Below are positions 1,766 to 56,678 of a DNA stretch of 64,000 bases, piece after piece. Under the pieces are notes generated by a model. It worked only from the letters and a program-made list of their open reading frames with translations. It had not been told where the DNA came from and made no database searches. Origin of the DNA: Deltaproteobacteria bacterium (GTDB lineage: Bacteria; Myxococcota_A; Polyangia; Haliangiales; JADYYK01); assembly GCA_020853705.1 (NCBI GenBank), contig JADYYK010000245.1, positions 7,943 to 71,942 on the forward strand, written 5' to 3'. Position numbers and translations under genes: made by a program. Position 1 is the stretch's first letter; the number at the start of each line of letters is the position of its first letter.

Positions 1766-3160
1766 GTGCGTTCCGTACGCCTACCTGCTGGAGTTCGTGA
1801 CTACCTGCCCGAGGCGGCGGCGCGGCGGCGTGCCATCGTGGAGGCGCTGGTCGGCGACTTCGAGCGCTGGGGCTATCAGCGCATCATCACGCCGGCGTTC
1901 GAGTTCGAGGACGTGCTGGCGCGGGGCTCGGGGGGTGGTGCGCCGTCGGCGGTGCGCTTCGTGGACGCACCCAGCGGCGACATCGCCGCGCTGCGCCCGG
2001 ACTTCACGCCCCAGGTGGCGCGCCTGGTGGCGACGCGCATGAGCGACGTCGGCGGGCCGATCCGGCTGTGCTACGAGGGCTCGGTCACGCGCAGCGAGGG
2101 CGCCGGGCAGGGTGGGGCGGCGCGGCGTGAGGTCATCCAGGCCGGGGTCGAGCTGATCGACGCGCCGGCGCCGGCCGGTGACGTCGAGGTGCTGTCGCTG
2201 GCGGCCGAGGCGCTGAGCTCGGTCGGGCTGCCGGACGCCACGCTGGACGTGGCCGAGGTGTCGCTGGTGCGCGAGGCGCTGTCGGATCTGCCGGCGGCGC
2301 TGGCTCGCGAGGCCGGCGCCGCCATCGCCAAGAAGGATCGGGCGGCGGCGCTGCGGCTGTCGCGCGCCGCCGGGCTATCGGCGCGGCGGCGCAAGCTGCT
2401 GGAGGCGCTGCCGTCGCTGTATGGCGGGCCCGATGCCGGTGCGGTGCGCGCGGTGCTGCGCGAGGCCGCACGGCTGTGCGAGACGGCGCGGGCGCGCGCC
2501 GGGCTGCGCGAGCTGGAGCGGACCCTGGCGGCGCTGGCGGTGGTGGCGCCGGGGCTGCGCGTGGTGGTGGATCTCGGCGAGGTTCGCGGCTTCGACTACT
2601 ACACCGGGGTGCGCTTCGCGGGCTATGTCGAGGGCGCGCCGGGCGCGGTGCTGGTGGGCGGCAGGTATGACGACCTGGTGGCGCGCTATGGCCGGGCGGC
2701 CAAGGCGACCGGGTTCGCGGTGGACGTCGAGGCGGTCGCGGGGGCGTTGAAGCGAAGAGCCGCGCTTGCGAGCACGAGCACGAGCACGAGCACGAGCACG
2801 AGCACGAGCACGAGCACGAGCACGAGCACGAGGAGCGCGATCACCCTGGTCGCCGGGGAGCCCACCGCGGCGCGCGCGGTGGCCCGGGCGCTGCGCGGGA
2901 TCGGGCGACCGTGCGCGATGGAGCTTGGCGGCCGGCGCGGGACGCGGGCGCTGGCGGAGTATGCCGACAAGCTCGGGCTCGGGCCGGTGCTGCGCGTGAG
3001 CGCGCAGGACATCGAGGTGGTGCCGCAGCGCGGGCGTGATCGGTCACAGGACGCCTGGCTGCCGGACTATCTGGCGGCGCGGCTGGCGGCCGGGCCTGCG
3101 AAGGCGAAGGCGAAGGCGAAGTCGAAGTCGAAGTCGAACGTGAAGAGGAGACGGTCATGA
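1766..3160 (+). CDS. hisZ: ATP phosphoribosyltransferase regulatory subunit HisZ (HisRS-like), carrying an in-frame (Ser-Thr)10 insertion and a Lys/Ala/Ser-rich C-terminal tail
   Basis: The frame runs on from serA (LPAGVRDYLPEAAARRR..RIITPAFEFEDVL..GDIAALRPDFTPQVAR..DLGEVRGFDYYTGVRF). Possible starts are GTG 1745, TTG 1751 and GTG 1766, and I chose 1766. The (GAGCAC)10 repeat at 2770-2832 is read as STSTSTSTSTSTSTSTSTST. The tail AKAKAKAKSKSKS comes from an AAGGCG/AAGTCG repeat at 3100-3140. hisZ sits next to purA, which is a common arrangement. Confidence 0.8.
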   Translation: MRSVRLPAGVRDYLPEAAARRRAIVEALVGDFERWGYQRIITPAFEFEDVLARGSGGGAPSAVRFVDAPSGDIAALRPDFTPQVARLVATRMSDVGGPIRLCYEGSVTRSEGAGQGGAARREVIQAGVELIDAPAPAGDVEVLSLAAEALSSVGLPDATLDVAEVSLVREALSDLPAALAREAGAAIAKKDRAAALRLSRAAGLSARRRKLLEALPSLYGGPDAGAVRAVLREAARLCETARARAGLRELERTLAALAVVAPGLRVVVDLGEVRGFDYYTGVRFAGYVEGAPGAVLVGGRYDDLVARYGRAAKATGFAVDVEAVAGALKRRAALASTSTSTSTSTSTSTSTSTSTRSAITLVAGEPTAARAVARALRGIGRPCAMELGGRRGTRALAEYADKLGLGPVLRVSAQDIEVVPQRGRDRSQDAWLPDYLAARLAAGPAKAKAKAKSKSKSNVKRRRS

Positions 3161-4455
3161 GCAACGTGGTCATCGTCGGGGCGCAGTGGGGCGACGAGGG
3201 CAAGGGCAAGGTCGTCGATCTCTACACCGAGCACGCCGACGTGGTGGTCCGCTTCGGCGGCGGCGCCAACGCCGGCCACACCCTGGTGGTCAACGGCGAG
3301 AAGCTGGTCACCCACCTCATCCCGTCCGGCGTGCTGCGCAAGGGGGTGCGCTGCGTGCTCGGCGACGGCATGGTGGTGCACCCCGGCGTGCTGCTGGAGG
3401 AGATGGCGGACCTCAAGGCGCGCGGTCTCCTGCAGGACGACAAGGATCTGCTCATCGGTGAGAAGGCCCACGTCATCCTGCCCATCCACACCCTGATCGA
3501 CGGCCTGCGCGAGCAGCAGAAGGGTGCGCTGGGCACCACCAAGCGGGGCATCGGGCCAGCCTACGAGTCCAAGGTCGGCCGCCGCGGCATCCGCATGGGC
3601 GACCTCTTGCGCCCCGAGCGGCTGCCCGCGCTGGTCGAGCGCACGCTCGACGAGGCCGCGCCCCTGATCCGCCACCTGGGGGGCACGCCGCCGACCGCGG
3701 CCGAGATCCTGGCCGACCTGGAGGACAAGGCGGCGCGCCTCGGGCGCTACATCGGCGACGCCGCGCGCTACGTCTACGGCGAGATCCGCAAGGGCCGCTC
3801 GGTGCTGTTCGAGGGCGCCCAGGGCGCGCTGCTCGACATCGATCACGGCACCTATCCGTTCGTGACCTCGTCGTCGACCACCGCGGGCGGCGCGTGCAGC
3901 GGCACGGGGATCGGGCCGACCGAGATCGACAGCGTCATCGGCATCGCCAAGGCGTACACCACGCGGGTCGGCGCGGGGCCGGTCCCGACCGAGCTCGAGG
4001 GCGACGCCGGGGCGCGCCTGCGCGAGGCCGGCGCCGAGTTCGGCGCCACCACCGGGCGGCCGCGCCGCTGCGGCTGGCTCGACGTCGCGGCGCTGCGCGT
4101 GGCGGTGCGCCTGAACGGCATGACCGGCCTGGCCATCACCAAGCTCGACGTGCTGGGGGGCATGGGCCCGCTCAAGGTCTGCGTCGGGTACCAGGTCACG
4201 GACGCGGGCGGCAGGGTCGAGGACCGCGACGAGCTGCCGCTGGATCCTGGTGACATCGTCGCCGCACGGCCGATCTACGAGGACGTCGCGGGCTGGGACG
4301 CGGTCACCCGCGAGGTCCGCGAGGTCGCCGATCTTCCCGTGGCGGCACGCAAGTACGTGTCGCGCATCGAGGCGCTGACCGGCGTCGAGGTGGTCCTGCT
4401 CAGCGTCGGCCCCGGCCGCGCCGAGACGATGGTGATCAAGCACCCGTTCCGCTGA
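3157..4455 (+). CDS. purA: adenylosuccinate synthetase
   Basis: 432 aa, beginning MSNVVIVGAQWGDEGKGKVVD...GGGANAGHT. The whole protein conserves PurA features. Its start overlaps the hisZ stop in an ATGA. Confidence 0.95.
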   Translation: MSNVVIVGAQWGDEGKGKVVDLYTEHADVVVRFGGGANAGHTLVVNGEKLVTHLIPSGVLRKGVRCVLGDGMVVHPGVLLEEMADLKARGLLQDDKDLLIGEKAHVILPIHTLIDGLREQQKGALGTTKRGIGPAYESKVGRRGIRMGDLLRPERLPALVERTLDEAAPLIRHLGGTPPTAAEILADLEDKAARLGRYIGDAARYVYGEIRKGRSVLFEGAQGALLDIDHGTYPFVTSSSTTAGGACSGTGIGPTEIDSVIGIAKAYTTRVGAGPVPTELEGDAGARLREAGAEFGATTGRPRRCGWLDVAALRVAVRLNGMTGLAITKLDVLGGMGPLKVCVGYQVTDAGGRVEDRDELPLDPGDIVAARPIYEDVAGWDAVTREVREVADLPVAARKYVSRIEALTGVEVVLLSVGPGRAETMVIKHPFR

Positions 4456-4547
4456 TGTTCCGGCAGCCCATCCTCGTCACCGCCGCCATCATCGCCGCCG
4501 CCGCGCTGGGGCTGCTGTTCCTGGTGCTGCGCGGTGGCTGCTCGTAG
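4455..4547 (+). CDS. small hydrophobic peptide (30 aa), possibly a membrane peptide; hypothetical
   Basis: Its ATG overlaps the purA TGA stop (TGATG). It encodes MFRQPILVTAAIIAAAALGLLFLVLRGGCS, a single predicted TM helix. It is too short for the ORF track. Confidence 0.3.
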   Translation: MFRQPILVTAAIIAAAALGLLFLVLRGGCS

Positions 4548-55854: not shown

Positions 55855-55944
55855 GAGAGCCCCGGACGTTTGCTTGGGAAACGTCCGCACGCAACAAGGT
55901 CGGGGAGCCAGCGATGACCCGGGTGAACAGCCCTGGAGTCGTCA

Positions 55945-56142
55945 ATGCCGTACCGGACAAGTCCCCGTCGAGATCCCGTAGCGCTGGCCCAGTGTGACGC
56001 CCTCGAGGAGGTGCTGCGGCGGCGGCACCAGCGCGCCAGATGGGTGCTGGTGGGCCTCGCGCTGCTGGCCGTGCTCGGCGCCACGGGTATGTGTGTCTGG
56101 AGTCAGGTTCAGCCGTCCTCGCACAACGGTGGAGCACGCTGA
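55945..56142 (+). CDS. small membrane protein (65 aa), hypothetical, translationally coupled to the ComEA-like gene
   Basis: RBS ggag sits 6 nt upstream of the ATG. It has one TM helix (WVLVGLALLAVLGATGMCVW). Its TGA overlaps the ATG of the next gene (TGATG). Confidence 0.4.
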   Translation: MPYRTSPRRDPVALAQCDALEEVLRRRHQRARWVLVGLALLAVLGATGMCVWSQVQPSSHNGGAR

Positions 56143-56678
56143 TGCAGGTGCGCTGGCTGGTCGGGCTGGTGGCGGGGCTGCTGCTGTGGTCGCTGACGCC
56201 GCCGCCGCGGGGGCCGCAAGGCGCGGCGTGGCCCGAATGCTCGCAGGCCCGGAGCCCGAGCCCGAGCACGAGCACGAGCCCGAGCACGAGCACGAGCACG
56301 AGCCCGAGCACGAGCCCGAGCCCGAGCCCGAGCACGAGCACGAGCACGAGCACGAGCACGAGCACGAGCACGAGCACGAGCACGAGCACGAGCACGAGTC
56401 AGAGGCTGGTGACCGTGACTTGTTCGAGCGGCAAGGGGGCGCGGCCGCCTGCGCGGGTGGCGCTGCTGCTCGGACAACGCATCGATCTCAATCGGGCCGA
56501 CGCCGAGGGGCTGAGCGCGTTGCCGGGGATCGGGCCGGTGCTGGCCGAGCGCATCGTCGTAGTGCGGGCGGCCCGGGGCGGCTTCTCGACGCTCGGCGAG
56601 CTGGCCGACGTGCCCGGGCTCGGGCCGCGGCTGCTGCAGCGCCTGGCGCCACTCCTGGAGCTGGGGCCAGCCCAGTAG
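56142..56678 (+). CDS. ComEA-like helix-hairpin-helix DNA-binding protein with N-terminal TM helix and a roughly 50-aa Ser/Pro/Thr linker encoded by a hexanucleotide repeat
   Basis: A GGAG RBS precedes the ATG. The TM helix is WLVGLVAGLLLWSL. The linker [47 protein letters not shown] comes from the (GAGCMC)n repeat. The C-terminus RIDLNRADAEGLSALPGIGPVLAERIVVVRAARGGFSTLGELADVPGLGPRLLQRLAP is a tandem HhH ComEA-type domain. I chose this frame over the overlapping HE-repeat frame. Confidence 0.7.
   Translation: MQVRWLVGLVAGLLLWSLTPPPRGPQGAAWPECSQARSPSPSTSTSPSTSTSTSPSTSPSPSPSTSTSTSTSTSTSTSTSTSTSTSQRLVTVTCSSGKGARPPARVALLLGQRIDLNRADAEGLSALPGIGPVLAERIVVVRAARGGFSTLGELADVPGLGPRLLQRLAPLLELGPAQ
56252..56398. 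repeat. long (GAGCAC/GAGCCC)n hexanucleotide microsatellite (about 24 units) inside the ComEA-like coding sequence
   Basis: Read directly from the sequence as gagcccgagcccgagcacgagcac...gagcacgag. It is in the same strand orientation as the other four GAGCAC loci. Confidence 0.9.

Follow-up and report, generated by a model that had tools for sequence, protein, structure and literature searches.

We analysed a 64-kb stretch of DNA (64,000 nucleotides, hereafter the window) from a Deltaproteobacteria bacterium, a myxobacterium of the Polyangia, which carries a dispersed family of tandem arrays of the hexanucleotide GAGCAC. The arrays were located by Tandem Repeats Finder (TRF) and pattern search. 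All five arrays of an original prediction, made from the sequence alone, were recovered at their places, and a sixth that it had lacked (Array 6) was revealed by TRF and a three-unit probe. The positions are summarized in Table 1. A period of 6, matches of 95–100% and 7.8–24.5 copies by TRF correspond to the short-unit, head-to-tail purity of a bacterial microsatellite or variable-number tandem repeat (VNTR). The three-unit GAGCAC probe, with up to two mismatches allowed, gave 48 matches, all on the plus strand; 0.01 were expected from dinucleotide-preserving shuffles. The arrays are split evenly between coding (Arrays 1, 5 and 6) and intergenic (Arrays 2, 3 and 4) positions. One unit recurs at many loci above expectation, as in a dispersed family of long simple sequence repeats (SSRs), both in the window (six loci per 64 kb, a figure from one window) and in a relative metagenome-assembled genome (MAG), Polyangia bacterium MAG_MBR_AS.47 (GCA_044229835.1). 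The G+C content of the window is about 71%, and its cumulative GC skew climbs over the whole length.

Table 1 GAGCAC-family arrays and associated genes of the window, and loci elsewhere with clustered arrays
Feature	Position	Strand	Description
Array 1	2769–2832	+	(GAGCAC)10.7, 100% pure; inside HisZ-like gene
Array 2	7844–7891	+	(GAGCAC)8, pure; intergenic
Array 3	30067–30113	+	7.8 units, (GAGCAC)7 and imperfect tail; intergenic
Array 4	52052–52104	+	(GAGCAC)5 then about 3.7 GGGCAC; between recG and cutA1 stops
Array 5	56252–56398	+	24.5 units, GAGCAC/GAGCCC mixture; inside ComEA-like gene
Array 6	50077–50135	+	Decayed, two-part; inside recG
HisZ-like gene	1769–3160 (start approximate)	+	ATP phosphoribosyltransferase regulatory subunit; host of Array 1
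RecG helicase gene	49743–52049	+	Host of Array 6; upstream neighbour of Array 4
CutA1 gene	52110–52454	-	Convergent with recG
ComEA-like gene	56142–56678	+	Helix-hairpin-helix protein, 178 aa; host of Array 5
Clustered GAGCAC arrays	L045 7643–7853
Clustered GAGCAC arrays	L072 1584–1821
Clustered GAGCAC arrays	L033 6354–6467
Clustered GAGCAC arrays	L044 4136–4241
Clustered GAGCAC arrays	L066 5738–5946

The three coding arrays of the window share the Ser-X frame (AGC-NCG). Array 1, read AGC-ACG, encodes (Ser-Thr)10 directly after the catalytic-like core of the HisZ-like protein (Pfam PF13393, residues 8–323), with a C-terminal domain beyond. Array 5 encodes a Ser-Pro/Ser-Thr linker between an N-terminal hydrophobic segment and the helix-hairpin-helix domain of the ComEA-like protein (HHH_3, residues 112–172). 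The (ST)10 run and a linker of about 50 residues had both been predicted, and the translations gave (ST)10 and 49 aa. The 5′ half of Array 5 is a mixture of GAGCCC and GAGCAC, and the 3′ half consists of 11–12 pure GAGCAC units. Array 6, with the units GAGCCC GAGCAT GAGCCC GAGCAC ... GGGTGC GGGTGC, is read ASPSMSPSTIPSSGAGAGAG (ASPSMSPST) in the N-terminal region of RecG. The unit length of 6 nt is a multiple of three, so a length change alters the linker and does not switch the gene off. All coding arrays are in frame and orthologues with other unit numbers are intact open reading frames (ORFs), which is not the behaviour of a contingency locus and supports the predicted slippage-type SSR with a frame-preserving unit. 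At high-GC loci with a callable frame, coding arrays lay on the sense strand throughout and were read as Ser-Thr or Glu-His.

The C-terminal end of the HisZ-like gene holds a further repeat, (GCGAAG)4(TCGAAG)3 at 3098–3138, read AKAKAKAKSKSKS just before the overlapping purA start; folding did not predict a hairpin for it. Among the loci fetched for comparison, which are given by L numbers, the GAG-CAC frame yielded (Glu-His)n within long ORFs at L028 (3202–3267), L015, L040, L058, L061, L071 and L093. The run is (EH)11 in L028, from MAG_MBR_AS.47, and (EH)5 in Streptomyces; such His-rich runs are potentially metal-binding.

The intergenic arrays had been placed at gene 3′ ends. This held for the two arrays that adjoin stop codons, Arrays 3 and 4: in Array 3, the perfect repeats end 3 nt from the stop codon (30113–30115) of a minus-strand Cys-rich gene, and Array 4 occupies 53 of the 60 nt separating the recG stop (52047–52049) from the cutA1 stop (52110–52112). 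It held in part for Array 2, which is located between two tandem minus-strand genes, 25 nt past the stop of one (7917–7919) and 65 nt before the ATG of the next (7778), and is therefore both a 3′ end and a 5′ region. Array 2 terminates in the palindrome GCACGAGCTCGTGC, and a purine run of GGGAGG/GGA (7808–7843) comes directly before it. An array of the relative MAG (L098, 3185–3340) is a mosaic of GAGGAC, GAGGAG and GAGCAC units. The purine run and this mosaic suggest interconversion of related GAG-NAN units.

We compared the arrays at orthologous loci. Close relatives with DNA context were recovered by ComEA and RecG protein searches together with members of the same clusters, and the comparison covered Arrays 3–6; Array 1 was compared at no more than 66% identity. 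L368 (NCBI GCA_963853155.1, an 8.02-Mb contig) and L366 (a JGI metagenome) are 99.9% identical to each other and 91–96% identical to the window. L367, L369, L370 and L371 belong to the MAG_MBR_AS.47 lineage and are about 89–94% identical to the window. A metagenome scan with RecG gave relatives of at most 48% identity, too distant for strain comparison.

Whole 6-nt units are gained and lost rapidly. L369, L370 and L371 are 99.1–99.4% identical over 5–11 kb, and aligning any two of them leaves a single gap, at the recG-cutA array, which has 8, 7 and 5 GGGCAC units, respectively. The second recG array likewise differs among the three. Since unit counts are unequal across near-identical strains, the arrays behave as VNTRs; these are strains of the relatives, not of the window's own species. 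The original prediction had called for this comparison and had named identical counts across strains as an argument against active variation, and such identity was not found.

The predicted variation in linker length was evident in ComEA. The array of 24.5 units in the window corresponds to (GAGCAC)3.5 in L367 and L370, read STSTSTS, and to 3.5 imperfect units in L366 and L368, read STSTNTS. The flanks align cleanly between the window and its relatives. Thus, the ComEA tether is 7 aa in the relatives and 49 aa in the window, in proteins of 134–136 aa and 178 aa. The constant (GAGCAC)3 of ComEA in L367 and L370–L379 was uninformative, because L370–L379 were retrieved via a single exact protein and L367 via a near-identical one. 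For HisZ, none of the 17 closest homologues carried an ST run; the best identity was 66% at most, and the position is a variable linker, in which the insertion is lineage-specific. ST linkers in proteins of relatives, which the original prediction had proposed to check, were thus seen in ComEA, in short form, and not in these HisZ homologues.

An indel lies beside comEA. The relatives (L368 15623–20914; also L366, L370 and L371) have an additional block, roughly 5 kb long, between a leuA-like gene and comEA, where the window has 288 nt (55852–56140). The block encodes a SLAC1-family transporter, a hypothetical protein, a response regulator and a dCache/HAMP histidine kinase, with an additional 276-aa gene in L366 and L368.

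At recG, variant units have arisen and then spread along the array. The recG-cutA spacer carries (GAGCAC)5(GGGCAC)3.7 in the window and (GGGCAC)8 in L369, so that GGGCAC has replaced GAGCAC; the GAGCCC blocks of Array 5 are a second example of such spread. In L368 the spacer is 11 nt (AGCACGAGCGA) and has no array. The site in the RecG N-terminus, decayed in the window, is formed by pure (GAGCAC)5–6 and (GGGCAC)2–5 in relatives: a perfect (GAGCAC)5 is present in L368, and (GAGCAC)2-GAGCGC-(GAGCAC)3 followed by (GGGCAC)5, read (ST)n...(GT)5, in L369. Array 3 has no counterpart beside the orthologous Cys-rich gene of L086, and this is exactly where synteny is lost; L086 does have an array elsewhere, between a different pair of convergent genes. 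Array presence and length are thus not conserved at orthologous genes of relatives, as in dispersed SSR families, and arrays arise, lengthen and decay without changing their locus.

The RecG N-terminal part and helicase core of L368 lie in different frames across the array region (9797–10001), and the recG gene call begins after the arrays, giving 620 aa instead of 768. Either the frameshift is real, or the repeat/G-run region was misassembled.

The hexanucleotide SSRs had been described as uncommon in bacteria, and we found this to be so. Perfect hexamer arrays of at least four units numbered zero in a control of 1.08 Mb, made up of unrelated bacterial contigs originally retrieved for a different purpose, and six in the window, namely the five GAGCAC-type arrays and (GCGAAG)4 at 3098–3121. 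Nearly all hexamer arrays of the window and the relative MAG use the GAGCAC unit, and SSRs of other periods are absent; neither is SSR-rich in general. A scan for (GAGCAC)5 in 185,579 genomes, one per species, gave at least 109 stretches in at least 96 assemblies (counted from contig accessions) of several phyla. The hosts among the matches listed were mainly Planctomycetota, Myxococcota/Polyangia and Actinomycetota. Seven of the listed stretches came from MAG_MBR_AS.47 alone, which has at least nine GAGCAC arrays on seven contigs and is a close relative, one locus being 93.6% identical to window positions 30116–32427. The unit forms arrays in many high-GC lineages, yet it is strongly concentrated in the lineage of the window.

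This concentration was not accompanied by a general abundance of the hexamer. In IMG/VR, we counted 7 stretches of (GAGCAC)5, 49 of (GACCAC)5 and at least 120 of (GAGGAC)5, and rejected the idea that GAGCAC is intrinsically the commonest hexamer SSR. Outside arrays GAGCAC is an ordinary word (rank about 200–1400 of 4096 hexamers, both strands), and two-unit tracts, like proto-arrays of 2–3 units, showed no excess; seeding from a frequent hexamer or from many proto-arrays was rejected on these grounds. Tract lengths were bimodal, with a geometric fall to 9 nt, a few isolated tracts of 11–17 nt, and then tracts of at least 32 nt. A literature search, incomplete in its coverage, returned no publication that deals with GAGCAC arrays or with myxobacterial SSRs.

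Two or three same-orientation arrays about 50–155 nt apart were seen in contigs of Planctomycetota, Myxococcota (Kofleriaceae) and unclassified 'Deltaproteobacteria' MAGs (Table 1). This is a higher-order periodic arrangement, and may come from modules repeated with ST linkers between them or from array clusters.

All six arrays of the window lie on one strand, as had been pointed out, but the statistical weight of this is low (two-sided p = 0.03; p = 0.25 for the three non-coding arrays by themselves). Three arrays are on the plus strand because they are hosted by plus-strand genes in which only the sense ST and EH frames are tolerated, and the shared strand is best explained by gene direction together with chance. 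Array orientation agreed with local GC skew at 15 and opposed it at 15 of 30 Myxococcota loci, and the ratio over all 109 listed loci was 44 to 65; a replication-strand rule is therefore unsupported.

The 60-nt flanks of the six arrays had no common motif or element ends, as for VNTRs. Around Array 3, the only region searched in this way, we found no inverted repeats or duplications. On the basis of the unshared flanks and of this search for inverted repeats, a mobile element like a repetitive extragenic palindrome or a miniature inverted-repeat transposable element was rejected. A CRISPR array was also rejected, as contiguous 6-mers differ from 23–50-nt repeats with unique spacers. Rfam searches found no RNA family at the arrays, and only a tRNA-Cys elsewhere in the window. 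The unit has no G-run, which does not fit the G-quadruplex of the heptamer families described below; a mismatched hairpin is predicted instead. The shared unit had been taken to suggest a sequence-specific generating or maintaining mechanism. This was not supported, given the unshared flanks, the ordinary frequency of the hexamer outside arrays, the presence of its arrays in several phyla (at least 96 assemblies), and the even split in GC skew.

The rotation GC-A-CG-A of the unit consists of two self-complementary dinucleotides with single bases between them, and each strand is therefore predicted to be capable of self-pairing, as CAG/CTG repeats are. Predicted folds of 60-nt DNA had energies of −13.6 kcal/mol for (GAGCAC)10, −15.8 for its complement and −22.2 for (GGGCAC)10, all with one pattern of two G:C pairs and one mismatch. 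Shuffles averaged −7 to −11 kcal/mol, and none of 200 was as stable (z = −4.5 and −5.8 for the GAGCAC strands). The predicted fold of (CAG)20 was −11.2 kcal/mol. Both strands are thus predicted to share the CAG/CTG-like ability to fold into hairpins. Units that break the core (GAACAC, GACCAC, GAGGAC and GAGCAT) were predicted not to form the fold of two pairs plus mismatch.

We then compared single-substitution variants that form runs of at least three units with those that occur as singletons, in 132 arrays. The ratio of runs to singletons was 10:36 at the two mismatch (A) positions and 6:77 at core positions (odds ratio 3.6, p = 0.025). It is suggestive that variants spread mainly at mismatch positions, consistent with a role of the hairpin.

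The arrays of the window are probably a lineage-enriched, hypermutable hexanucleotide VNTR family, driven by slippage and kept where it is harmless, with no need for dedicated machinery, a mobile element or a conserved function. We infer that replication slippage causes the unit changes. Variant units are created by point mutation and afterwards spread through the array. Slippage is probably favoured by the GC-N-CG-N form of the unit, both strands of which may form CAG/CTG-like hairpins, and an array beyond a length threshold would grow fast. The bimodal tract lengths and the positions of spreading variants are indirect hints that instability may arise from hairpin formation and such a threshold. 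Persistence would be restricted to harmless sites, that is, short spacers at gene 3′ ends and flexible protein linkers. Linker arrays would lie on the sense strand in frames giving hydrophilic dipeptides from preferred codons: Ser-Thr from AGC-ACG, Ser-Pro from AGC-CCG and, elsewhere, Glu-His from GAG-CAC.

Several points weigh against this explanation. Slippage and hairpin formation were deduced rather than observed. GAGCCC, which has spread in Array 5, has a weak top-strand fold (−5.2 kcal/mol). The test of variant positions is confounded, as the genome is GC-rich and the mismatch positions are the only A/T sites of the unit, and edge units add noise. Hairpin potential leaves the lineage enrichment unexplained, given the IMG/VR counts of the non-hairpin (GACCAC)5. 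The common strand of the six arrays (p = 0.03) is not predicted by slippage alone, and our searches found no strains of the window's own species.

Selection for function was considered at the level of nucleic acids and of proteins. Bidirectional hairpin terminators, 3′ RNA-stabilising structures or protein-binding arrays, kept by selection at many loci, would account for the three non-coding arrays that abut stop codons or fill convergent-gene spacers, for the array of L086 between convergent genes and for the left-plus/right-minus gene pattern at several further loci. The GGGAATC repeats of Xanthomonas likewise favour sites just after ORFs (PMC4692102), and Array 2 with its palindrome, folded as RNA, is more stable than shuffles on both strands (z = −3.4 and −4.0). 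However, Arrays 3 and 4 gave RNA folds with no clear advantage over shuffles (z = −0.8 to −2.2), Arrays 2–4 lack the T-runs expected of intrinsic terminators, and a canonical terminator scan of the one region examined, 51500–52600 around Array 4, gave no terminator-like site. The presence of arrays is not conserved either, since L368 lacks the recG-cutA array and L086 lacks Array 3. As three of the six arrays are intragenic and the unit number is free to vary between strains, we regard such elements as improbable. Adaptive tuning of Ser-Thr/Ser-Pro linkers, for example as a periplasmic ComEA tether or as Ser/Thr modification sites, would make the non-coding arrays by-products. All three coding arrays are indeed in the Ser-X frame at interdomain or tether positions, the ComEA tether differs between 7 and 49 aa among relatives, and myxobacteria are rich in low-complexity regions (PMC6821194). 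Yet half of the arrays are non-coding with the identical unit, cytoplasmic housekeeping proteins such as HisZ and RecG have no obvious need of tunable linkers, and the RecG insertion is decaying in the window. The same DNA is read as Glu-His at other loci, and what is shared is therefore the DNA unit, not the peptide. Protein-level selection as the cause of the family is accordingly hardly likely.

Arrays might instead have been copied between loci in finished form, through ectopic gene conversion or templated insertion, or with a mobile element that carries the repeat. The lack of an excess of 2–3-unit proto-arrays and the bimodal lengths are compatible with this, as are the location of Array 3 exactly at a synteny break and the recurrence of variant units at separate loci, L369 having GGGCAC in each of its two arrays at recG and the window having GAGCCC in Array 5 as well as Array 6. 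What speaks for growth in place is the presence of short seeds at orthologous sites, namely 3.5 units at the ComEA site of relatives and, in L368, AGCACGAGCGA between recG and cutA. Differences between strains are whole-unit steps inside one array, the flanks are unshared, and inverted repeats and duplications were lacking around Array 3, where they were searched for. Copying is thus very improbable.

A wider reading, which we consider unlikely, is that GC-N-CG-N hexamer arrays are a bacterial counterpart of eukaryotic expandable repeats, self-propagating and hairpin-driven, which invade a Polyangia lineage and some Planctomycetota. The tethers of ComEA, HisZ and RecG and the convergent-gene spacers would then be continually remodelled, and whether the arrays spread or are retained might be determined by some trait of replication or repair particular to the lineage, or by a function, for example of RNA/DNA hairpins that act in both directions at the ends of genes.

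The surroundings of Array 3 contain further features. A 570-nt intergenic region directly upstream of the array holds five perfect copies of the 17-mer GAACCTGGGTCGGGTCC in one orientation (29863–30063), four of them preceded by CAC and the last abutting Array 3. Their start-to-start spacing is irregular (46, 34, 48 and 56 nt), and the number expected by chance is 0.02. The rest of the window and the 369 fetched loci have no further copy. In its pattern the group resembles iterons or a cluster of binding sites. The small Cys-rich protein encoded beside Array 3 (30113–30598, minus strand, 161 aa) has a weak, sub-threshold C-terminal match to pacifastin inhibitors. A gene at 30720–33281 (plus strand) encodes an 853-aa protein with Major Vault Protein (MVP) domains (MVP_shoulder, E = 4e-27; Vault_3, E = 4e-9). 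This bacterial MVP homologue is kept at 93.6% nucleotide identity in the relative MAG (L086).

Two in-frame minisatellites with other units are also present in the window. A perfect 21-bp repeat of 2.6 copies (6227–6281) lies in the gene of a GYF/zinc-ribbon protein (4713–6719), and a 15/30-bp repeat has 6 and 2.8 copies (19442–19531).

The results offer an explanation, at the level of DNA, for some of the low-complexity sequence that is unusually abundant in myxobacterial proteins. One DNA unit yields both low-complexity linkers and intergenic repeats, and these vary between strains that are more than 99% identical. The arrays are potential VNTR markers for strain typing of an uncultured Polyangia lineage of activated sludge and soil, and provide a tractable system to ask why one predicted hairpin-forming unit expands in one lineage. 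They are also hazardous for assembly and gene calling: the recG call of one relative is truncated at the array, whose sides lie in different frames.

The closest precedents of the GAGCAC family are known from other bacteria, as dispersed long SSRs that are specific to a genome; they include the heptamers GGGAATC of Xanthomonas and GGGGA(C/T)T of Nostoc and the STRR repeats of cyanobacteria (PMC4692102). The Xanthomonas repeat occupies about 186 loci, which are mostly intergenic near the upstream ORF and do not fall at the same genes across species (PMC4692102). The GAGCAC family resembles these in that one short unit is present at many unrelated loci of a lineage, many arrays are intergenic near the end of an upstream ORF, and related species do not share long arrays at the same genes. 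It differs from the heptamers in its frame-preserving unit of 6 nt, in the translation of half of its arrays, and in its lack of G-runs, with a predicted mismatched hairpin in place of a G-quadruplex.

Coding VNTRs and SSRs are exemplified by the Ser-Asp repeat regions of staphylococcal Sdr/Clf proteins and by the markers of multiple-locus VNTR analysis. The GAGCAC arrays are similar in their perfect head-to-tail units, in copy numbers that differ between near-identical strains, and in the in-frame length change of a flexible segment. In contrast to such VNTRs, the unit is common to unrelated genes and intergenic sites, and the hosts are housekeeping genes (hisZ, recG) instead of surface antigens. 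Contingency loci, the phase-variable SSRs of Haemophilus and Neisseria, undergo heritable and reversible length changes by slipped-strand mispairing. The likeness is limited to slippage of a simple repeat: with their units of 1–5 nt, a change in number alters the reading frame or the promoter spacing and turns genes on or off, whereas an in-frame unit of 6 nt cannot do so. As changes of 6-nt units cannot shift the frame, assignment to the contingency loci was rejected.

The arrays resemble eukaryotic CAG/CTG repeats in the predicted two-strand hairpins with two G:C pairs and a mismatch, and in a bimodal length distribution that suggests an expansion threshold. They differ in their period (6, as GC-N-CG-N, instead of 3), in their bacterial host and in being short (25 units at most). 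Myxobacteria are the top bacteria for low-complexity regions in proteins (PMC6821194), and the ST and SP runs described here are examples of such regions. That work was done at the protein level, whereas here one DNA unit accounts for coding and non-coding repeats.

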